Virus record (IMG/VR): IMGVR_UViG_3300037780_000034 | Span: 128,001-192,000 of that record | Direction: 5' to 3' (one strand) | Length of the DNA stretch: 64,000 nt | Source of the DNA: a virus | Taxonomy: Duplodnaviria > Caudoviricetes | Shown here: positions 8,812 through 19,368 of the stretch, in pieces | How the letters are laid out: each line of letters begins with the position of its first letter | How positions within the stretch are numbered: position 1 is the stretch's first letter | Translations under genes and position numbers: made by a program | Notes under the pieces: generated by a model | What the model saw: only the letters and a program-made list of their open reading frames with translations | Told to the model about the DNA's origin: nothing | Databases searched by the model: none

Positions 8812-8933
8812 TGCATCGTAGCTCAGAGGTAGAGCAGGTGACTGTGGATGCTAAAGGTCATAGGGTCAGTTCGATTCTGACAGCATCAACCGTAATCACT
8901 TGGTCGCAGGTTCGATCCCTGCCGATGCAGCCA
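8812..8933 (+). tRNA. tRNA-Asn(GTT) interrupted by a 47-nt tRNA-like insert (8846-8892)
   Basis: TGCATCG/CGATGCA acceptor, G73, CCA, intact D and T arms; removing the insert gives loop CT-GTT-AA. Confidence 0.8.
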
Positions 8934-9420: not shown

Positions 9421-9516
9421 AAATATGTCGGTTCCATTCAGTTGGTTTATTGAAGAACGATACTTCAATTTAGTCTAGTCGTTTAGACAATCGGCTCCAT
9501 TTTTAAACTTTTTTTT

Positions 9517-9646
9517 AGGATCATTTCCGCAATATTTTACTTTGCATCAGAAGCACGTGTTTGCAGGTTCAAGTCCTGCCTCCCCAACCATAATAATTGA
9601 CGGGGAGTAGGCAAATGGTAAAGCCGCGTTAAGTAATATGATCCTG
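9517..9646 (+). ncRNA. cassette 1 carrying a circularly permuted tRNA (CAG, Leu-like)
   Basis: AGGATCAT-TTCCGCAA ... ATGATCCT-G; 3' half 9544-9590 precedes 5' half 9601-9629. Confidence 0.85.
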
Positions 9647-9827
9647 TTATATACTACAGGCTAACTTTTGGGGGTTAGCTTGGTGTTACAGAAGTATAGG
9701 AAATCATTCGGAACCAAATAATGCCTATACCATTTTACGGTTCCAGCAAAACACAGTTGACAACCGATAGAGAATCAGCTACATTACAGACACTGAAAAT
9801 GAAACCACTAACAAAAGGTGAAACACT

Positions 9828-10280
9828 ATGAAGGGCATTGAAGCCAAATATACTGCTAAAGTAATTGCAAAAATGATCAAACATAATCGTTCAATTGAAC
9901 GCAAACATCAGCGTAAAAGTGAACGTGATTTCTTTGATGATGAAAGCTATGTTATTGCAAACTTTACACATAAAGAAGGAAAGAAACTTTCTTCACAATT
10001 TCGTGCATTTATGATCCATAATGCTTTTAAGAAAAATCGTGGATTTACAAGTGCAGAAGTTGCTTATTTTAACCTTGGTGAAAATTCACTGTCTACTATC
10101 AAAGAGAATAAAGAACTATATTCACGATATATGGATAGGTTTAAACGCCAGCAAAAAGCAATTAACATTGTTCGTCATAAACTTCTTGATCATAATGAAC
10201 GTGAAAGTTTTGAAAACTGGCTTAACACAAATGCAATGAATGAAACTTACTTTGACGAAAATTTCCTTCAACCTGCATAA
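9828..10280 (+). CDS. hypothetical protein
   Basis: RBS AAGGTG; promoter just upstream. Confidence 0.7.
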   Translation: MKGIEAKYTAKVIAKMIKHNRSIERKHQRKSERDFFDDESYVIANFTHKEGKKLSSQFRAFMIHNAFKKNRGFTSAEVAYFNLGENSLSTIKENKELYSRYMDRFKRQQKAINIVRHKLLDHNERESFENWLNTNAMNETYFDENFLQPA

Positions 10281-10543
10281 TACTGGTTGACACTGTTGAA
10301 AATCATTGATATAGTGTCAACAACAACAAAACGCTCTTTGACAATTTAACCATCTTCCCTATGCGAAAGCTATGATGGGATAAAAACAGACTTATTGTGT
10401 AAGATGAAGAATCTGTAAATCGCAATTGGTTGTCTGTTTTGAATATGATAGCACCACTTCCGAGTAATCAGATAATAACTGATTATTTCGAGTTAATTAA
10501 TAGTTTGAGCAAACGGATGCTATCATATTCAAAACAGATATAA

Positions 10544-10617
10544 GGCTCTATTGCATTGTGGAATGCAGCGGCTTCTAACCCCGTTTCAAGCAGGTTCGAC
10601 TCCTGTTAGGGCCACCA
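10544..10617 (+). tRNA. probable amber suppressor tRNA (CTA); alternative reading is a distorted Arg(TCT)
   Basis: canonical spacing puts TT-CTA-AC in the loop; C31.C39 mismatch. Confidence 0.65.
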
Positions 10618-10727
10618 AATAAAACCAAATGGAGAGAAAAATGTTCTAGATTTATATACCACCATAACTTCTATTGATTTAAAGTTTAAAGAAAGACCTT
10701 TACTCAAATATCAATAGGAGAAACAAA

Positions 10728-11108
10728 ATGAGTATTCAATTAAAAATTAAAAATAAACATCTTAGTGAAGAAGCACGAATCATACGTTTTGAAGAAAACA
10801 AAATCAAAAAACACGCTCGTAACGTAAGAGAACGTCAAGGGCACCAAACTGCCGATGATATAATGAAAACTTTTCAGTCACTTAGACATCATCGCAGATG
10901 GGACGTTCGTAACGAAAATCGTGCTACTTTTATTGCCAGAGCCTTCATAGAAGGAAAATCATATAAACAAGTTGAAACCAAACGTAATCCAGAGAATGAA
11001 TATACATTTATAGCGTTTGTGTTGCCAAGAGTGTTGACAATGGTAAACAAGTATGGCAATGTCCAGATAACAAAAGAAGAATTACTCAAATGGTGTAATC
11101 AAGAATAA
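10728..11108 (+). CDS. hypothetical basic protein
   Basis: RBS AGGAG. Confidence 0.7.
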   Translation: MSIQLKIKNKHLSEEARIIRFEENKIKKHARNVRERQGHQTADDIMKTFQSLRHHRRWDVRNENRATFIARAFIEGKSYKQVETKRNPENEYTFIAFVLPRVLTMVNKYGNVQITKEELLKWCNQE

Positions 11109-11115
11109 CTAAAAC

Positions 11116-11192
11116 GGAAGCATAGCATAATTGGTTAATGCCCACGTCTCATAAACGTGTTTATCTTGGTTCAAGTCCAAGTGCTTCCACCA
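11116..11192 (+). tRNA. tRNA(CAT), Met or Ile2
   Basis: canonical cloverleaf. Confidence 0.9.
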
Positions 11193-11337
11193 ATATGTTG
11201 AAACTTAATTGTCAGTCTGACGTTTCAATATTAATTAATTAATGACTGGCCAAAGGCTTGATGTGTTAAAAACCTTGTGGTGATGTAATCAAGATAAACC
11301 ACATAAACTCCTTTGTATGAAATGAAATTTCCTCTTT

Positions 11338-11395
11338 AGGATGATTACCGCAAAATTAATAAACTTTTTTTTGGTAAAAGCAGAACATCATCCTG
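11338..11395 (+). ncRNA. cassette 2 with a short hairpin cargo
   Basis: AGGATGAT-TACCGCAA ... ATCATCCT-G. Confidence 0.8.
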
Positions 11396-11407
11396 ATTGT
11401 GTATTGT

Positions 11408-11487
11408 GGGCGAGTGGGCAAATTGGTAAAGTCGGTTCACTCAAAATGAGAGTCATTTTGTCGGTTCGAGTCCGACCTCGCCTACCA
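11408..11487 (+). tRNA. tRNA-Leu(CAA)
   Basis: loop CT-CAA-AA; 8-nt variable region. Confidence 0.9.
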
Positions 11488-11572
11488 ATTTTATCTTATG
11501 AGTTAAGATTTGTTTTAATCATTGAAGTCCCTCTACGGGCACCAACAACTATAAACACTAAAATAGAATAAT

Positions 11573-11647
11573 GCGGACATCGTATAAGGTTATTACGCTT
11601 GGCGACCAGCTAAGAAATACAGGTTAGAATCCTGTTGTCCTGCTCCA
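11573..11647 (+). tRNA. atypical tRNA-Gly (ACC)
   Basis: Gly-type G1-C72, C2-G71, U73; bulged acceptor; loop CG-ACC-AG; T loop TTAGAAT. Confidence 0.65.
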
Positions 11648-11655
11648 AATAACTG

Positions 11656-11684
11656 TTGACACTCACCAGAGAATCAACTATAGT
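11656..11684 (+). promoter_or_regulatory. sigma70-type promoter
   Basis: TTGACA-17-TATAGT. Confidence 0.8.
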
Positions 11685-11708
11685 AACAGTGTAAGAACTA
11701 ATACTTGT

Positions 11709-11785
11709 GGGCCTGTAGCATAATTGGTTAATGCCCAGTGCTCATAACACTGTCAATCGCGGTTCAAGTCCGTGCGGGCCTACCA
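11709..11785 (+). tRNA. tRNA(CAT), Ile2 or Met
   Basis: canonical cloverleaf. Confidence 0.9.
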
Positions 11786-11805
11786 GTATTAGTTTTTGAT
11801 TTTTT

Positions 11806-11864
11806 AGGATGACTTCCGCAAAATTATGCATTTGACCGTTAATCAAAAAAGCAAAATCATCCTG
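11806..11864 (+). ncRNA. cassette 3 carrying an isolated Asn-type anticodon arm
   Basis: AGGATGAC-TTCCGCAA ... TTTGA-CC-GTT-AA-TCAAA ... ATCATCCT-G. Confidence 0.8.
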
Positions 11865-11873
11865 TAATAGAAT

Positions 11874-11967
11874 GGGCGCGTGGCGAAATTGGTTGAAACG
11901 CAAGGCACTTAAAATGCCTCACAGATTAGTGATCACACTGTGGGTTCGAGTCCCACCGCGCCTACCA
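11874..11967 (+). tRNA. tRNA-Leu(TAA)
   Basis: loop CT-TAA-AA; long variable arm. Confidence 0.9.
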
Positions 11968-12026
11968 AAATGTAGTAAACACAAAGAAATTTACTTCTAC
12001 TCATAAATAAGTAGAAGGAGAATTAA

Positions 12027-12467
12027 ATGAGTGATTACTTCAAAAATTATATGAACTTAACAAAAGAAAACAGACAAAGACACTTAGATATATCTTCACC
12101 TTGTGAAGAACGTGGTGGGAATAGCACAATATATAGAGGAGTCCTTGCTCAATATTTAAACACTCCTATCCCGATGGGTAGGATAGCAGTTCTGGCTCAC
12201 GCATGTAACAATAATAAATGTTCTAATCCACAGCATTTATATTGGGCGACAGACAGAGAGAATATAGTAGAAGATGGAAAAAAGTTTGGAACTTTTAAGA
12301 GTGTTTGGGAACGAATGGTAGACAAGCACGGTTATGAAGAAGCTTGTAGGCTACAAGCCAACGGTGCCCAATCAAAGGCAGGACAAGGAAACAAAGGTAA
12401 ACGAAAGTCTGAAGAACATAAGCGCAAAATATCCGAATCTTTAAAAATAAAAAATAGAAAAGAATAA
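12027..12467 (+). CDS. His-Me-finger (HNH-type) homing endonuclease with NUMOD3-like tail
   Basis: HACNNNKCSNPQHL; KRKSEEHKRKISESLK. Confidence 0.8.
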   Translation: MSDYFKNYMNLTKENRQRHLDISSPCEERGGNSTIYRGVLAQYLNTPIPMGRIAVLAHACNNNKCSNPQHLYWATDRENIVEDGKKFGTFKSVWERMVDKHGYEEACRLQANGAQSKAGQGNKGKRKSEEHKRKISESLKIKNRKE

Positions 12468-12538
12468 ATCTTCTAATAATATAAATAATTATAGAAATTT
12501 GCAACCATTATACAACTACCAAAAAGGATTAAAATGTT

Positions 12539-12662
12539 AGGATCATTACCGCAATTTTATTTGCATTTCCAGCCGTAGATGCAGGTGCAATTCCTGCTCA
12601 CCCTACCAATATAAATTATGGGGTGATCGTCTAATAGTAGGACAACGTATAATATGATCCTG
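12539..12662 (+). ncRNA. cassette 4 carrying a circularly permuted tRNA (TTC, Glu-like)
   Basis: AGGATCAT-TACCGCAA ... ATGATCCT-G; 3' half 12563-12608, 5' half 12620-12647. Confidence 0.85.
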
Positions 12663-12697
12663 TTCTTTAAAAAAAAGAAAGTTAATTTAAGTTTTTT

Positions 12698-12816
12698 AGA
12701 TTATGTTCAGCAAACCATATAAATTATATGAAAGCCTATCAACGTTGCCGGAAGGCCCGTATGGCAAACCCAGTTTTCGATTTTCTGGTTCTATAAAAAA
12801 GTAGACACATAATCTG
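12698..12816 (+). ncRNA. cassette 5 with a multi-hairpin cargo
   Basis: AGATTATG-TTCAGCAA ... CATAATCT-G. Confidence 0.8.
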
Positions 12817-12823
12817 TAATAAT

Positions 12824-12900
12824 TGCGGGGTAGACTGGAGAGGTACCCAGCACGGTCTCATAAGCCGATCACGGCGGTTCGAATCCGCCCCCCGCAACCA
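12824..12900 (+). tRNA. initiator-like tRNA-fMet(CAT)
   Basis: TGCGGGG/CCCCGCA-A-CCA; loop CT-CAT-AA. Confidence 0.85.
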
Positions 12901-13164
12901 TTTTTATAAAATGATAATTCCCTTTATTTTTACGAGTTTCCTTTCCGAGTAAAAATATCAAGGTTGAGTTATCATTTTATAAAAATGAGGATATAAATTA
13001 TGGATAAAGAAATACAAGATTTTATAGATTTTTGGAAAGAAAAAGATGTAAAATTACCAAATCCACAAAATTATCCAAAATCTTTTGAATGGTATGTTAC
13101 AATGTGGAAATATCACACAAAATAATATTATAAATACCTATGTAAGTTAACATAGGAGATAATA

Positions 13165-13809
13165 ATGTCATTAATAAGAATTCAACAAATACTAAAAGAT
13201 ATGAACCACGATCCAGGTCCAATTGATGGATTATGGGGAAGCAGAACAAAAGCTGCATTAGAAAGTTTAATACAATGGGAAGGAAAACCAGTAACGGTTA
13301 CTTCCAATTCATCTGATGATGATTTACCTTGGATGATAGAAGGAAAAAAAGTATTTGGGTTTCACGAAGTTAGAAATAATAGTGAATTAAGAAAATGGTT
13401 AAGAAGTGATGGTGCTACTCTTGGTGATCCAAAAGCACTTCCCTGGTGTGGTGATTTTACCGAGACTGCTATAAAAAACTCATTACCAACTGAACCTTTT
13501 ACTGGTAGAATGCTTGAAAATCCATATTGGGCAAGAAATTGGCTTGAATTTGGTCGTGCATCGCCTGCTATATATGGATGCATAGGCGTTTTTAGTAGAG
13601 GCACAGGAGGTCACGTTGGTTTCTTGGTAGGTGAAGATGCAACAGACTATTATGTTTTTGGTGGAAATCAAAGCGATAGTGTTAATATAGTAAGAATAGA
13701 TAAAAAACGTTTACTGGGAACAAGATGGCCATTGACTTACAATATTGTTAATACACCATTACCTAAAAGAGACCCAAAAACTGTAATCAAATCAGTTAAT
13801 GAAATATAA
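13165..13809 (+). CDS. endolysin-like: peptidoglycan-binding domain plus CHAP/NlpC-type domain (TIGR02594-like)
   Basis: PGPIDGLWGSRTKAAL; PWCGDF; GHVGF; GGNQSDSV. Confidence 0.8.
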   Translation: MSLIRIQQILKDMNHDPGPIDGLWGSRTKAALESLIQWEGKPVTVTSNSSDDDLPWMIEGKKVFGFHEVRNNSELRKWLRSDGATLGDPKALPWCGDFTETAIKNSLPTEPFTGRMLENPYWARNWLEFGRASPAIYGCIGVFSRGTGGHVGFLVGEDATDYYVFGGNQSDSVNIVRIDKKRLLGTRWPLTYNIVNTPLPKRDPKTVIKSVNEI

Positions 13810-13818
13810 GGAAAAGTT

Positions 13819-14055
13819 ATGAAAATAGTATTTGCCCAAGGTGCATTTGATGATTTTGATGGAACACAAGAAGAACTTGATAACCTTCTTTCGGAATTAA
13901 AAGAAATGATTGAAAGTGGTTCACTTATGGAAAAAAGTGAACCAGTGGATTTAGACTTATTGCAAGAAGAAAATCCAGAAATATATGAAAAAATTATGAA
14001 GTTTGATAGTTTAGATCAAGATACGTTTGAAAATACTAAAAATAAACTCCATTAA
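13819..14055 (+). CDS. hypothetical acidic protein
   Basis: RBS AAGGA. Confidence 0.65.
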   Translation: MKIVFAQGAFDDFDGTQEELDNLLSELKEMIESGSLMEKSEPVDLDLLQEENPEIYEKIMKFDSLDQDTFENTKNKLH

Positions 14056-14059
14056 TTTT

Positions 14060-14138
14060 GGCCCCATCGTCTACGCTGGTGTTAGGATACTCGGCTTTCA
14101 TCCGAGAGAAGTCGGTTCAATTCCGTCTGGGGCTACCA
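14060..14138 (+). tRNA. tRNA-Glu(TTC)
   Basis: loop CT-TTC-AT; G1-U72, A73. Confidence 0.9.
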
Positions 14139-14145
14139 AAATAAT

Positions 14146-14231
14146 GTGTCGGTGGGTGAGCGGTTTAAACCACCTGACTGTAAATCAGGCGCTGAAAAGC
14201 AACGCTAGTTCGAATCTAGCCCGACACACCA
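14146..14231 (+). tRNA. tRNA-Tyr(GTA)
   Basis: class II cloverleaf. Confidence 0.95.
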
Positions 14232-14273
14232 AATATTATGAGTGCAAAGTTACAAGCACTCAAAACAAATCTT

Positions 14274-14350
14274 GTGCGTGTGTAGCTGAATGGTTAAGCG
14301 CAGGATTGCAAATCCTGATTATGTTGGTTCGAGTCCAATCACGCACTCCA
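14274..14350 (+). tRNA. tRNA-Cys(GCA)
   Basis: GTGCGTG/CACGCAC acceptor, U73; 4-nt instead of 2-nt linker after the acceptor stem. Confidence 0.85.
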
Positions 14351-14389
14351 ATATAGTCTACTCTAATAAATAATAAAAAAGGTAAAAAA

Positions 14390-14560
14390 ATGGAAATATC
14401 TGATAGGATTGAATCTTTAAAAGCAAAACATCGTGAACTTGATAGTAGGATTGAAGTTCTGTATGCTGAAAGAGTAGACGAAAAGTATATAACTTCTCTA
14501 AAAAAAGAAAAGTTAAAGATAAAAGAAGAAATTACTAAGTTACAAAATAGCTTAGTATAA
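14390..14560 (+). CDS. small coiled-coil protein, YdcH/DUF465-like
   Basis: LKAKHRELDSRI...LKKEKLKIKEEI (56 aa, below the ORF-track cutoff). Confidence 0.7.
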   Translation: MEISDRIESLKAKHRELDSRIEVLYAERVDEKYITSLKKEKLKIKEEITKLQNSLV

Positions 14561-14568
14561 AATAATTT

Positions 14569-14653
14569 AGGAATATTTCAGCAAATTTATCTTGGATAAA
14601 ACATTGTTCTCAAAAACAAAGTGAAGTGGTTCAAATCCACATCAATATTCCTG
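14569..14653 (+). ncRNA. cassette 6 enclosing D-, anticodon- and T-like arms without an acceptor end
   Basis: AGGAATAT-TTCAGCAA ... GTGG-TTCAAAT-CCAC ... ATATTCCT-G. Confidence 0.8.
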
Positions 14654-14663
14654 ACTAATATCT

Positions 14664-14774
14664 TGGAACATTACCGCAACTATAACATAAACAATGGGTT
14701 ACAGGTTCAAATCCTGTCTTTTACAGTTTGTAAAAGTAGTTCAATGGTAGAACAATTGTCAAAAAATGTTCCAG
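14664..14774 (+). ncRNA. cassette 7 carrying a permuted tRNA-like RNA with a closed acceptor stem and no CCA
   Basis: TGGAACAT-TACCGCAA ... T arm, CTTTTACA-GTT-TGTAAAAG, D arm ... ATGTTCCA-G. Confidence 0.85.
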
Positions 14775-14782
14775 TATTTTAT

Positions 14783-14856
14783 GGGGGATTAGTTCAATGG
14801 TAGAACAGGTGCTTTACGCGCATCATACAGCAGTTCGATTCTGTTATCCCCTACCA
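14783..14856 (+). tRNA. tRNA-Val(TAC)
   Basis: loop TT-TAC-GC; CCA. Confidence 0.9.
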
Positions 14857-14871
14857 ATATTAGGAAAAAAT

Positions 14872-15309
14872 ATGAATAATAAATGGGATTTAAGATTTTT
14901 AGAATTAGCAAAACATATTGCAGAATGGTCAAAAGACCCAAGCACAAAAGTTGGGTGTGTAATAGTAAGACCAGATAAAACTATTGCGTCTGTTGGTTAC
15001 AATGGATTTCCACGTGGTGTTAATGATGAACCAGAAAGATATAATAATCGTGAGATAAAATATCTTATGGTAAAACACGCAGAAGAGAATGCAGTATACA
15101 GTTCAAAAGAATCATTGACTGGATATACGGCGTATGTTACACACTATCCGTGTTCTAGTTGCACAGGAACACTAATACAAAATGGAATAAAAAGAATTGT
15201 AACACAAAAACCAGATGATAGTTTTGCTTCAAGGTTTCGTGATAGTTTTGAATCATCAAAAATAATGATTAATGAAACTGGTATAGAATTAGTTTTAATA
15301 GAAGATTAA
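14872..15309 (+). CDS. dCMP deaminase
   Basis: SKDPSTKVGC, HAEENA, PCSSC. Confidence 0.9.
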   Translation: MNNKWDLRFLELAKHIAEWSKDPSTKVGCVIVRPDKTIASVGYNGFPRGVNDEPERYNNREIKYLMVKHAEENAVYSSKESLTGYTAYVTHYPCSSCTGTLIQNGIKRIVTQKPDDSFASRFRDSFESSKIMINETGIELVLIED

Positions 15310-15311
15310 AT

Positions 15312-15396
15312 GGGCTAGTGTTGAAATAGGTAGACAATGCGCACTTAGAATGCGTTGCCGAAAGGCGTGGGGGTTCAAGTCCCTCCTAGCCTACCA
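15312..15396 (+). tRNA. tRNA-Leu(TAG)
   Basis: class II cloverleaf. Confidence 0.95.
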
Positions 15397-15414
15397 TTAT
15401 TGAAAGGATACAAA

Positions 15415-15588
15415 ATGAAAAACAAAATAAAAACACCTAAACCACGAAATGAATATGCAATTTCTGCAAGGTTTAGAACAGGTGCTGGTCCTATGCAAAA
15501 ATCTAAGAAAGCACAGAGACAACAAGATAAAATTGCTTTAAAGAAAAAAGGTAAAGACTACTTTAACAATAGAGAAACTATTCTTTAA
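15415..15588 (+). CDS. small basic hypothetical protein
   Basis: RBS AAGGA; KPRNEYA..GAGPM. Confidence 0.6.
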   Translation: MKNKIKTPKPRNEYAISARFRTGAGPMQKSKKAQRQQDKIALKKKGKDYFNNRETIL

Positions 15589-15735
15589 GTAGTCTTGTTT
15601 TATAATATATGAAAGGATATAATATGTTTACATTAATAGTAGGAATAGTAATTGGTGCTTTCATTGGTTGGAATTTTCCACAACCAGAGTTTGCTAGAAA
15701 TATTCAAAATAAGATAAAAAATATTCTAAAATAAT

Positions 15736-16509
15736 GCCACGGTAGCTCAGTCCGGTAGAGCATACAGGTTTGTAAAATAGTAAATATCTAAAAAGGATAT
15801 TTACTATGATTAGAAATAAAATAGAATGTAAAAAATGTGAAAGATTGATAAGTTTATCAAATCATAAAAGACATACACAATCCTGTAATGGCAAAAAAGT
15901 ATCTTCAAACAAAACTATTGAAGAAAATCATATTGATTGGAAAACAATACAAGAAGATTATGACAATGGATTAACATACCGTGGAATAACAGAAAAATAC
16001 AAAATATGTCAACAATCAATATCAAATGCGAGAAAAAAAGGTCTGTTAAAAACACGTTCTAAATCAGAAGCCTCTAAACTTTATTATAAAAATAATACAC
16101 CAAACATAATGAGCGATGAGGCCAGAAAAAGAATTTCTGAAAAAATGTCCGAACATAATCACGGCGGAAGAAGTAAATGGTTTGAGATAGATGGGAAGAA
16201 AGTCCAAGGAACTTGGGAGCTTAACTTTGCCAAATTTTGCAAAGAGAACAACATAGAATGGCAAAGATGCAAACCTTGGAAATATAAAATGGATAAAAAA
16301 ATAAGAAGCTATACACCAGACTTTTATATTCCAAGCAAAAAATTATTTATAGAAATAAAAGGTCATTGGTGGGGAGATGATAGAAGAAAAATGAACTGTG
16401 TAATAGAACAACATCCTGATAAAAACATTCTTATAATAGAAAAAGAGATATACGAACAGATGCTAGATGGAAAATTAGAATGGTGATTCGAATTCACATC
16501 GTGGCACCA
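15736..16509 (+). pseudogene. tRNA-Thr(TGT) split by an endonuclease gene (pieces 15736-15775 and 16482-16509)
   Basis: GCCACGG pairs with TCGTGGC-A-CCA about 700 nt downstream; positions 39-48 are missing. Confidence 0.75.
15806..16486 (+). CDS. PD-(D/E)XK-type putative homing endonuclease
   Basis: YTPDFYI...FIEIKG; N-terminal Zn finger and HTH-like segment. Confidence 0.75.
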   Translation: MIRNKIECKKCERLISLSNHKRHTQSCNGKKVSSNKTIEENHIDWKTIQEDYDNGLTYRGITEKYKICQQSISNARKKGLLKTRSKSEASKLYYKNNTPNIMSDEARKRISEKMSEHNHGGRSKWFEIDGKKVQGTWELNFAKFCKENNIEWQRCKPWKYKMDKKIRSYTPDFYIPSKKLFIEIKGHWWGDDRRKMNCVIEQHPDKNILIIEKEIYEQMLDGKLEW

Positions 16510-16615
16510 TAGTTTTATGATACACTGTCCGCAACAGGTCTTGATGGGGTAGCTTACGAGCAAGCCAAAGTGTAGGTGTAAGTCCTACCGCAGTGTATCA
16601 TAAAAATATAAATAT

Positions 16616-16692
16616 TGTTCTGTAGCACAATTGGTTTAGTGCAGGCGACTGATAATCGTCAGATTCAAGTTCAAATCTTGACAGAACAACCA
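16616..16692 (+). tRNA. tRNA-Ile(GAT)
   Basis: loop CT-GAT-AA. Confidence 0.9.
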
Positions 16693-16701
16693 ACAAATTT
16701 A

Positions 16702-16777
16702 TGGTAGAAGGGAAATTGGCGACCGACCGCACTTTGAATGCGTGTTATTGTAAGTTCGAATCTTACTCTACCAACCA
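16702..16777 (+). tRNA. tRNA-Gln(TTG)
   Basis: U1-A72; loop CT-TTG-AA; weak D arm. Confidence 0.8.
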
Positions 16778-16799
16778 ATATAAAGTAAAAATGAAATAC

Positions 16800-16884
16800 G
16801 GACAAGTGCCCGAGAGGACAAAGGGAACTGACTTTTAATCAGTCGCTATATGCTACGTGGGTTCGAATCCCACCTTGTTCACCA
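16800..16884 (+). tRNA. tRNA-Lys(TTT) with a class II body
   Basis: loop CT-TTT-AA; 13-nt variable region; 3-bp D stem. Confidence 0.85.
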
Positions 16885-16962
16885 AAATATGGTCGAATCA
16901 GATTGACATATACAGTCAACTATGCTATTGTATAGTATATTCAATGAAAGAAAGATATTACT

Positions 16963-17409
16963 ATGAAAATTGAATACCGTCAAGGCGATCTATTTAAAAC
17001 AGAGATTAAAACAATTGTTCACGGATGCAATGCGCAAGGTGTTATGGGGTCTGGGGTTGCGAATATAATTCGTGAACAATATCCAGAAGCATATGAGCGT
17101 TATCGTAATGAGTATGAAAAACATAATTATCTAAAGCTTGGTGATATCATATCAGTTCCTTGTAATTACAAGTTTATTGTAAACGCTATTACACAAGAGT
17201 ATTTTGGGCGTGACAATAAACGATATGTTAGCTATGATGCAGTAGATGACGTTATGGTAAAGTTAAATAAATTTTACGATATATACGGTATTTCAGAAAT
17301 TGCTATGCCAAAAATTGGTGCTGGTTTAGGAAATGGTTCTTGGGAAGTGATAGAAGCAATCATAGAGAATCGTCTTGACACCGTGAAACCAGTAGTGTAT
17401 ACTATGTGA
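16963..17409 (+). CDS. macro domain (ADP-ribose binding/hydrolase) protein
   Basis: GDLF, IVHGCNAQGVMGSGVA, MPKIGAGLGNG. Confidence 0.9.
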   Translation: MKIEYRQGDLFKTEIKTIVHGCNAQGVMGSGVANIIREQYPEAYERYRNEYEKHNYLKLGDIISVPCNYKFIVNAITQEYFGRDNKRYVSYDAVDDVMVKLNKFYDIYGISEIAMPKIGAGLGNGSWEVIEAIIENRLDTVKPVVYTM

Positions 17410-17420
17410 TATGAAATAAT

Positions 17421-17497
17421 CTCCACGTAGCTCAACTGGACAGAGCGAGTGACTTCTAATCACTAGGTTGAGGGTTCGATTCCTTCCGTGGAGGCCA
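17421..17497 (+). tRNA. tRNA-Arg(TCT)
   Basis: canonical cloverleaf. Confidence 0.95.
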
Positions 17498-17561
17498 TTT
17501 CTTATACTACCTTATACCCTACTAACAGGTATAAATACCTATGAACTAGGAGAATACTATA

Positions 17562-17957
17562 ATGAGCATTTCAAACCAAAAAGGTGATATAGGGGAAGCA
17601 CATTTTGTTTTAAGGGCTACTGAAAAGGGATATTGGACTGGAAAAATGCCACAAGACTGCCCTTATGATTTTGTATTGGATAGAGGAAAAGGATTAGAGC
17701 GTGTTCAGGTAAAATACAGGTCTAGTGCAAAAAAAGGTTCAATACAAATTAATTCCTTTAATTCAAGTCCGCAATCAAATAGAACATATAACGGTTTCGT
17801 TGATCAATTTGCAGTATATAACCCAGAAACATCAGAAGTATATCTTATTCCAGCTAATTTAGTAATGGAATCTGGTGCTTCTATTTTTAGAGTAGAATAT
17901 CCTAAAAATAATCAACTAAAAGGTGTAACTTTTCTTTCTGAATTCAAAGAATGGTAG
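17562..17957 (+). CDS. PD-(D/E)XK endonuclease (group I intron-associated type)
   Basis: KGDIGE, YDFVLD, RVQVKY. Confidence 0.8.
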   Translation: MSISNQKGDIGEAHFVLRATEKGYWTGKMPQDCPYDFVLDRGKGLERVQVKYRSSAKKGSIQINSFNSSPQSNRTYNGFVDQFAVYNPETSEVYLIPANLVMESGASIFRVEYPKNNQLKGVTFLSEFKEW

Positions 17958-18096
17958 TTCGAATCTTACTTGCAGCACCAATAAAAATATTGTATTGAAC
18001 CCCACTATTCATATGCTGAGTGTTTTAGACCTGACACTGTGAAGCGAATATGCGTTCAATACCTGCTAGGGGAATTGGTCCCTCCTAGTCAGTTTT

Positions 18097-18170
18097 GGCC
18101 CCTTGGTATATGGATATTACGCTCGGCTGTCTACCGGGAAAAACGGGTTTGAGTCCCGTAGGGGTCGCCA
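18097..18170 (+). tRNA. tRNA-Asp(GTC)
   Basis: loop CT-GTC-TA; G73. Confidence 0.9.
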
Positions 18171-18577
18171 ATATAGACTGTGACGTAATCGGCCCTTGTG
18201 AGGAACGCTCCCGTAACCAGTCGGGTTAAAGTTGCAAACAACCCAGTCTATAAAATAAAGTCCTATGTCCGACTTACCGATTTTGGTATTTTGGCTTAGG
18301 CACCAGTTTGATCTAGATACTTTTATTTTTGGAGCAAGAGTAGTCGTGTGTGATGATAAAAATGAAAGTCGTTTCAATGCTAGACAACATTCGGTTCAAG
18401 GACGTGCGAACCAGTATTATGACACCTGCACGTTGACCCTGAAACCAGTGTGCAGCATTATACGATGGGTAACAGTCTGGAGAGTGACAGACATATATGC
18501 GAAAAGGGTTTTTAGTAGTATGTGGTAATTCTTAAACCCTGAAATATCCATTAAGATCGTCGGTAGGCCACATATTT

Positions 18578-18652
18578 GGGGGATTGGTGAAATCAGGATC
18601 ACGTAGGTGTTGCATACCTAAATTATCGGGGCAGGTCCGATATCCTCCACCA
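18578..18652 (+). tRNA. tRNA-Ala(TGC) with a non-canonical T loop
   Basis: G3.U70, A73; loop GT-TGC-AT; T loop GGCAGGT. Confidence 0.8.
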
Positions 18653-18812
18653 TATAAATAAAGGATATGTTATGATTGGTTTAATATTTTTATCATTTAG
18701 TCCATTGTTTTTGATAGCATCAAATGACTATTTTGGTAAAATTTCTTCTATAATTTGTGCTGTTATTGGCATAACCATAATAACTATATCTCTGTTAATG
18801 TAAGGAATAAAA

Positions 18813-19142
18813 ATGTCATATGAAAAACCACTTCCTAAACCATTATATCCGCCAGTTGACCAAGGTTCACTAAAAGCTTTTGAATATTACAAAGAATTTA
18901 TAGAATATCTTGGAGCAAAGCCGGTAAATCATACTGAAATAGAAAATGGTGATACCACAAGTTTAGAACATTTGTTATGGATGTGTAATCATTGTATACC
19001 AAGAATTCGTGATGATGGATTAGGATTTAATGTTTCTAAGTATTCACGATGGTTAGGATACATACAAGGTTGTTTAATTTGTAAAGGTTACACAAGTGTA
19101 GCACAAGAAAGAGACAGAACAAGAAACTTTTTTAATGAATAA
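18813..19142 (+). CDS. hypothetical protein
   Basis: RBS AAGGA. Confidence 0.65.
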   Translation: MSYEKPLPKPLYPPVDQGSLKAFEYYKEFIEYLGAKPVNHTEIENGDTTSLEHLLWMCNHCIPRIRDDGLGFNVSKYSRWLGYIQGCLICKGYTSVAQERDRTRNFFNE

Positions 19143-19148
19143 TCTTTT

Positions 19149-19368
19149 TGGATCAGTTCAGCAAACAATATTTCCGTGAAAAGGACCGTGACGGTGGTGC
19201 AAATCCGCCCTTCCCCGCCACAGATACACTATGACAACATAGACGGGTTAATCGCCGTAGGAACGAAGCAGTTTCCAAACCAACGATAGGAAGAGTTTGT
19301 CGTCTTCTGTAGTGTATCTTTGACGGGGAAGTAGCTCAGTTAGTAGAGCAGGTAAAAAGTTGATCCAG
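19149..19368 (+). ncRNA. cassette 8 carrying a circularly permuted tRNA-Phe(GAA)
   Basis: TGGATCAG-TTCAGCAA ... TTGATCCA-G; 3' half 19174-19220, 5' half 19325-19353. Confidence 0.85.

Follow-up and report, generated by a model that had tools for sequence, protein, structure and literature searches.

What kind of RNA carries the parts of a tRNA in permuted order and has its acceptor end closed? The question is raised by an element at 14663-14774 (+) of the window, the 64,000-nt stretch of viral DNA analysed here, taken from an IMG/VR virus record of 317,722 bp with an estimated completeness of 85%. The sequencing runs that matched the stretch were pond metagenomes only, none of those listed being an RNA run, and identical DNA over 14558-15136 was found in a second pond run; a relative in a third run had no contig spanning the element. 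The element, referred to as the sealed RNA, is flanked by a short ORF and a tRNA-Val(TAC) gene and lies in a tRNA array at 8.8-22.5 kb, where ARAGORN predicted 22 genes, all on the + strand. A sequence-only reading had described a permuted tRNA-like RNA with a sealed acceptor and no CCA, and every element that it listed was found in its place.

Anatomy of the sealed RNA and of the handle family around it

The features of the locus are collected in Table 1. The element is enclosed by a 10-bp terminal stem, in which TTGGAACATT (14663-14672) pairs with AATGTTCCAG (14765-14774). In the interior, the acceptor strands CTTTTAC (14718-14724) and GTAAAAG (14730-14736) are paired at 7/7 positions; if A14725 also pairs with T14729 (A73-U(-1)), the acceptor helix is 8 bp long and is closed by GTT. 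The anticodon stem, ATTGT/ACAAT, had been described as complete, and it does pair at five of five positions. Nucleotides for the tRNA tertiary pairs are all present (U8-A14, A15-U48, G18G19, U54-A58 and G53-C61).

Table 1. Features of the sealed RNA and its immediate neighbours in the window
Feature	Sequence	Position	Strand	Remark
Neighbouring handle RNA	TTAGGAATATT-TCAGCAA ... AATATTCCTGA	14567-14654	+	T arm only (AGTGG-TTCAAAT-CCACA); 8 nt upstream of the sealed RNA
Handle, 5′ strand	TTGGAACATT	14663-14672	+	Pairs with 14765-14774; identical in 4 orthologues; pairing probability ~1.0
Handle motif	ACCGCAA (family consensus WCMGCAA)	14673-14679	+	Predicted unpaired
Linker	CTATAACATAA	14680-14690	+	11 nt, ending CATAA; variable among orthologues
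Anticodon-like stem, 3′ strand	ACAAT	14691-14695	+	5/5 pairs with 14755-14759; low predicted pairing probability
Variable loop	GGGTT	14696-14700	+	U48 = 14700
T arm	ACAGG-TTCAAAT-CCTGT	14701-14717	+	Rfam tRNA and YrlA alignments
Sealed acceptor hairpin	CTTTTAC-A-GTT-T-GTAAAAG	14718-14736	+	7/7 pairs in tRNA register; CCA absent
U8, A9 and D arm	GTTC-AATGGTA-GAAC	14737-14753	+	Canonical A14, G18G19, A21; D arm proper 14739-14753
A26, anticodon-like stem 5′ strand and linker	ATTGT (14755-14759), linker CAAAA	14754-14764	+	
Handle, 3′ strand and conserved G	AATGTTCCA + G	14765-14774	+	Family 3′ signature CC-W-G
tRNA-Val(TAC)		14783-14856	+	ARAGORN and Rfam; 8 nt downstream of the sealed RNA

Energy folding gave a minimum of -25.7 kcal/mol (z -1.8) for a structure that is not a cloverleaf, and a cloverleaf-like fold reached -21.5 kcal/mol. 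Only the handle, that is, the terminal stem with the motif that follows it, and the T arm were predicted confidently, and the probability of the anticodon-like stem was near zero. Because energy folding alone does not recover the cloverleaf, the support for this fold is comparative and comes from the orthologues described below.

The sealed RNA and tRNA-Val(TAC) are probably contained in one transcript. By eye, the D-arm segment TAGTTCAATGGTAGAACA of the sealed RNA (14737-14754) seems identical to that of the tRNA-Val at 14790-14807; this common segment could reflect a common origin or a common binding factor.

The handle is not confined to this element. Nine handle RNAs, each with a terminal stem followed by WCMGCAA, are encoded on the + strand at 9516-19368, all in the tRNA array and several of them 8-12 nt upstream of tRNA genes. 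The stem sequences change among these paralogues with the pairing kept (AGGATCAT, AGGATGAT, AGATTATGT, AGGAATATT, TGGAACATT and others). The general form is a stem that starts with W-GG and ends with CC-W-G, and the sealed RNA fits it (TTGGAACATT / AATGTTCCAG). The bodies mounted on the nine handles are diverse: two are short, two consist of a T arm only, three, including the copy at 9516-9646, are permuted and tRNA-like with a CCA and a spacer, one is unclassified (12697-12816) and one is sealed. When the whole genome was scanned with a strict handle rule, 19 matches were obtained versus 1-6 in shuffled genomes. The strict rule gives ~2 false matches per 100 kb, all of them long and inside coding sequence. 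It recovered 8/9 array copies and missed the one at 16513-16605, whose stem is of a different kind.

Two other genes of the array deserve mention in their own right. At 8812-8930, Rfam identified a 119-nt tRNA match (54.5 bits) that ARAGORN missed; it resembles a tRNA whose anticodon loop is interrupted by ~47 nt, which themselves include a T-arm-like hairpin. The ARAGORN tRNA at 10544-10617 has the anticodon CTA ('Pyl'), that of an amber suppressor.

Conservation of the sealed acceptor end

Orthologues were searched for with a pattern built from the handle of the sealed RNA. They were found on one viral contig and three metagenome contigs, two of which are identical over the element, leaving three distinct sequences (L129, L245 and L247); the L129 contig is a fragment, estimated to be 7% complete. 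The TGGAACAT handle and the D arm are retained in all three, as is an acceptor that is sealed and has no CCA. The D arm is near-identical among the orthologues and its stem is invariant, their handle motif reads ACAGCA versus ACCGCAA in the window's RNA, and their acceptors differ in sequence, with 9 bp and a tetraloop. BLAST of the region against 50,697 GenBank phage records returned only generic tRNA and deaminase similarity.

In the four-sequence alignment, 95.9% of the cells pair, compared with 31-45% in slid registers, and 0/500 shuffles reached this value. Of the six compensatory pairs identified, three belong to the acceptor and two to the T stem; the sixth is in the anticodon-like stem, which also has one C.A mismatch in the orthologues. 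The Levitt pair covaries as well, being A15:U48 in the window's RNA and G15:C48 in the three orthologues.

These data bear on whether the element is a non-functional remnant, left over after CCA and linker had been lost from a CCA-bearing cassette or from a tandem duplication of tRNAs. Sister copies in the array do have CCA and linkers, and the identity of the D arm with that of the adjacent tRNA-Val is compatible with a recent duplication. In addition, the closest relative found by dCMP deaminase synteny (72% identity) has the tRNA-Val and no cassette at that place, its cassette orthologue being located ~0.9 kb upstream with a motif that ends in GCAT. Against a remnant, paired positions in three helices and the Levitt pair have changed in a compensatory way in the orthologues from three other assemblies, the tertiary-pair nucleotides are all intact, and unrelated phages also have sealed bodies, closed by stable tetraloops. 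The covariation among orthologues largely rules out a dead remnant, which we consider very improbable. The sequence-only reading had proposed an uncharged L-shaped tRNA mimic, with mimicry or decoy roles for the cassette family beyond tRNA supply, and had named a decayed pseudogene as the outcome if all homologues carried CCA. The L129, L245 and L247 orthologues do not carry it, and the proposal of a mimic is supported by the intact tertiary pairs and by orthologues that stay sealed through compensatory changes.

Sealed bodies are also present in at least 10 other phage handle RNAs, some with GNRA or UUCG loops. For 18 permuted bodies from many phages, we compared two 7-nt segments, one that follows the T stem and one that precedes positions 8-9. 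These segments pair at 5.78/7 positions with their own partner and at 3.60/7 with the partners of other bodies (0/5000 permutations). Eleven of the 18 bodies are sealed, with loops that include GCAA, GTAA and TTCG, and the other seven carry N73-CCA in exact tRNA register, so the bodies fall into two discrete designs. We take the sealed tRNA body to be selected for within the handle family, beside a separate CCA-bearing type.

A third mounting of a tRNA on a handle was observed at L227:5565-5660. The body of this handle RNA has the normal tRNA order (D arm, intact anticodon arm CTTCTAA and T arm), the handle stem replaces the acceptor stem, and the Rfam tRNA score is 55 bits.

The permuted order could instead mark a genuine circularly permuted tRNA gene, whose hairpin would be opened by RNase P, followed by CCA addition and closure of the anticodon loop by a ligase to yield tRNA(CAU). 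The sequence CATAA stands where positions 34-38 would be, the acceptor stem has 7 bp and three sister copies encode CCA. The phage has genes for an Rnl1-like ligase, an Rnl2-like ligase and a CCA-adding enzyme, and Mycobacterium smegmatis YrlA RNA is cut and gains CCA (PMC4201824). However, the CAT triplet is not conserved: the 'anticodon' region varies across the orthologues (CATAA / ACAA / TCAA), and U33 is absent, so there is no complete 7-nt anticodon loop. Nor is there a removable spacer, as only AGTTT joins positions 72 and 1; it extends the helix to 8 bp (9 bp in the orthologues), and the extended helix should hinder RNase P. The window already has three tRNA-Met(CAT) genes according to ARAGORN, and RtcB was not found in the phage genome. 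A permuted tRNA gene in this strict sense is thus distinctly unlikely in our judgement. The sequence-only reading had seen CAT-AA 5′ of ACAAT and had placed the opening of the molecule in the loop. The CATAA is indeed there; because the triplet varies among the orthologues, 'permuted tRNA opened in its loop' describes the shape of the RNA and not its origin.

A Ro60-like protein as the candidate partner of the handle

The record contains one DUF2828 gene (G000:85209-86636; DUF2828 + DUF7788), located on the same strand as the sealed RNA and ~57 kb from it. The AlphaFold model of its product, made with a 44-sequence alignment, had a pLDDT of 82 and a pTM of 0.79. In a fold search with this model, the full-length matches at ranks 1-13 were all Ro60, with E down to 3e-8 and TM up to 0.61; they comprised structures from Xenopus (1YVR/1YVP/2I91), Thermus phage phiLo (9L5Y/9KOP, second-best), Deinococcus (2NVO) and human (9NEN). 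Matches listed below rank 13 were mostly isolated vWA domains, none full length. The phage DUF2828 protein models as a Ro60-type ring. The matches came from the fold search alone: no match was obtained when the protein sequence was compared with PDB chains, and the Pfam TROVE domain (PF05731) was not found in the 317-kb record.

An initial scan of viral contigs with a handle pattern yielded mainly chance or coding matches, many of them from one conserved coding motif, and real cassettes on only three contigs.

The handle and the DUF2828 gene occur together across phages. Four records were found by handle DNA alone, namely the window's own and those of three further contigs, and DUF2828 is encoded in every one. 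At 80 loci anchored on DUF2828 genes, 55/55 strict handles were on the strand of the gene with the motif after the 5′ strand, and where the loci were fully flanked, 35/42 strict handles were located ≤1 kb downstream of the gene; as controls for the 80-locus scan, shuffles gave 3 matches and control loci gave 3 long matches within coding sequence. In Mycobacterium phage GuuelaD, three handles directly follow a gene annotated 'Ro-like RNA binding protein', and in Escherichia phage C600M2 (Felixounavirus), four handles, one with a sealed tRNA-like body, are found in the tRNA array after the DUF2828 gene.

In the genome studied here, a 34-nt mini-handle, GAATGAT-AACAGCAA-...-ATCATTC-TG, is present at G000:C1:85155-85188 (L121:952-985). 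It is preceded by a promoter-like site (TTGACA-17-TAATAT) and followed by the ribosome-binding site (AGGAGA) of the DUF2828 gene. The mini-handle might serve as a binding site for autoregulation.

In many phages a short handle RNA is followed by a long one of 180-250 nt, a recurrent type with the conserved 3′ part ...GAGATATAGCTGCCGAGC...AATACGAACA. This long RNA was seen ~60-400 nt after the DUF2828 gene in L150-L154, L160, L172, L175, L178, L184 and L236.

The link between handle and DUF2828 protein in this genome, as judged from sequence, draws on the family-wide co-occurrence and on the mini-handle. By this evidence the enclosing stem and ACCGCAA, which the sequence-only reading overlooked, are most simply read as a conserved handle tied to the Ro60-like protein. 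This tie places the RNA among the Y-RNA-type mimics, a class that is already known.

The handle RNAs might instead act independently of the Ro60-like protein, with the handle serving as a processing or stability signal of the tRNA operon and the tRNA-like body recruiting RNase P or other tRNA enzymes in cis, or shielding the transcript from exonucleases. All nine copies are indeed in the tRNA array, several of them 8-12 nt before tRNA genes, the Ro60-like gene is distant in this genome, and nuclease protection was proposed as one role of the tRNA fold by Chen et al. 2014 (PMC4201824). However, in most of the phages sampled the handles adjoin the DUF2828 gene even when no tRNA follows, and a mini-handle is present in the leader of that gene itself. 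Stems of 8-10 bp are also short for RNase III. A function apart from the Ro60-like protein therefore seems unlikely to us, if less so than a permuted tRNA gene.

The explanation that we favour, and hold to be moderately probable, is that the sealed RNA is a Y-RNA-type small non-coding RNA, composed of a handle for a Ro60-like ring and a sealed, tRNA-shaped effector body. According to this model, the RNA would be transcribed with the tRNA array, and an RNase P cut at tRNA-Val, 8 nt downstream, would free its 3′ side. The precedent for this proposed processing is Deinococcus, in which one precursor contains both Y RNAs and a tRNA (PMC4201824). The handle would then bind the phage Ro60-like ring protein (DUF2828/DUF7788), leaving the sealed body as the effector module, which would be neither aminoacylated nor carried by EF-Tu. 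The body would show a tRNA elbow and a minihelix to a host or phage tRNA-binding or RNA-decay factor, which would be either tethered to the ring, as Y RNAs tether PNPase (PMC4201824), or sequestered. By precedent, the body might target PNPase (PMC4201824, PMC12135203) or enzymes that recognise the elbow of a tRNA. Because the phage has two RNA ligases and a CCA-adding enzyme, and M. smegmatis YrlA gains CCA, the sealed end may be opened.

These enzymes are encoded at several places in the genome. A T4 Rnl1-type RNA ligase is located at G000:C1:83092-84232 (L241:1324-2464), after a DNA ligase gene and ~1 kb upstream of the Ro60-like gene, an arrangement that recalls the bacterial rsr-rtcB operon. 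It consists of two overlapping ORFs, of 196 aa (ligase domain) and 198 aa (weak Rnl1 C-terminal match), which could be explained by a frameshift, a split gene or an assembly error. An Rnl2-family RNA ligase is at G000:C1:36694-37191 (-) and the CCA-adding enzyme (PolyA_pol family, 479-aa frame) at G000:C1 ~121109-121666 (+).

Relation to known systems

YrlA (RF02553) was the one non-tRNA lead from a permissive Rfam scan. It matches 14673-14778 over the whole model with 31.5 bits (E 0.0016 for 15 kb and 2.6e-5 for 241 nt), a score well below the Rfam gathering threshold of 69; sister bodies in other phages score 24-37 bits. YrlA RNAs are bound by Ro60/Rsr and have a tRNA-mimic effector made of a T arm, a closed acceptor-like stem and a D arm (PMC4201824), and in the crystal structure of Wang et al. 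2018 (10.1101/312249) this effector mimics a tRNA closely and 'lacks a free CCA end'. The sealed RNA has a YrlA-like effector domain with the same three parts, the tRNA tertiary pairs and no free CCA. The likeness extends to paired 5′ and 3′ ends, a short conserved motif after the 5′ strand, the A15:U48 / G15:C48 covariation, a probable co-transcription with tRNAs, of which YrlA RNAs are capable, and the presence of shorter sibling RNAs alongside. In contrast to YrlA, the handle family has WCMGCAA, a DUF2828/DUF7788 partner candidate and many bodies that are not tRNA-like. The GNCGAAN0-1G motif of YrlA was not found at the 5′ end of the sealed RNA, where ACCGCAA stands instead, and no TROVE-domain Ro60 gene was found within ~4 kb. 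YrlA is the closest known kind, and the sealed RNA falls outside it in threshold score, 5′ motif and TROVE linkage.

In vivo, the YrlA of M. smegmatis is an RNase P substrate and acquires a CCA (PMC4201824). It shares with our RNA a 7-bp acceptor stem within a Y RNA; in contrast, the sealed RNA has only 5 nt between positions 72 and 1, which extend the helix, and the orthologues extend it further. By analogy, the CCA-bearing sister copies may likewise be RNase P substrates.

Two phage systems are closer in setting. Thermus phage phiLo has a phage Ro60 ring with partner RNAs, Yrl1 and Yrl2, beside the gene (PDB 9L5Y, 9KOP). This Ro60 binds phage Yrl RNAs and host PNPase (PMC12135203), it was recognised as a Ro60 homologue by a UniProt database search, and its RNAs carry CGAA; in contrast to the sealed RNA, no tRNA-like body is reported for them in the text consulted. 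In the felixounavirus Bas63, the Ro60-like gp130 is encoded directly upstream of a tRNA array and is reported to counter the ppl defence system, an anti-defence phenotype for a protein of this kind; the authors propose that Y RNAs may be among the neighbouring genes annotated as tRNAs (PhageMaP, 10.1101/2024.10.10.617714). The PhageMaP preprint differs from the present analysis in that it defines no RNA family or handle.

A resemblance outside phages and bacteria was also observed. The dictyostelid Class I RNAs (RF01414) have a short terminal stem, an unpaired motif, a variable body and a 3′ CUGU; positions 3, 6, 9, 10 and 11 of the motif are conserved as T, C, C, A and A, respectively (Kjellin et al. 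2021, PMC7919456). The 11 bases that end the motif of the sealed RNA (CATTACCGCAA) fit all five positions. In contrast, Class I RNAs are eukaryotic and are bound by an RRM protein. RF01414 gave no match to the sealed RNA at E-value limits of 5 and 10, and it matched a short handle in L113 at only 28.5 bits (threshold 41.5). The resemblance may be convergent.

The family-wide picture is broader than this locus. The handle RNA family accompanies a very abundant phage protein family, with at least 7,972 relatives and at least 710 cultured-phage records. Ro60-Y RNA particles have been described chiefly in animals and in a small number of bacteria, and we know of no binding target for the tRNA-like module of Y RNAs. 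Since the handle family is present in cultured E. coli and Mycobacterium phages, the role of the Y-RNA tRNA mimic becomes testable by genetics. A bolder proposal, which we put forward as speculative and doubtful, is that phages with DUF2828 rings run a modular display, in which one handle carries interchangeable bodies and the sealed and CCA-ended bodies are purpose-built baits against host tRNA-directed defence. If it were true, the sealed body would bait readers of the elbow and minihelix and the CCA-ended body would bait readers or modifiers of CCA ends, and with both baits the phage could sequester host tRNA-directed defence enzymes or destroy them. Under the same proposal, the likeness to the Class I RNAs of amoebae would be a sign that an ancient code of RNA-protein recognition is shared.

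Permuted tRNA order itself has a precedent, as Soma and colleagues reportedly described in 2007 circularly permuted tRNA genes in red and green algae, in which the 3′ half is encoded before the 5′ half. The algal RNAs mature via a circular intermediate into working tRNAs with a conserved anticodon, whereas the window's RNA has an unconserved anticodon and a sealed acceptor. The handle RNA family was not found in Rfam or in the literature searched. A Ro60 partner RNA that mimics an uncharged tRNA is already known, both as an architecture and as an idea. New with respect to Rfam and that literature are the handle motif, the DUF2828-type partner, the failed YrlA tests and the repertoire of two body types.
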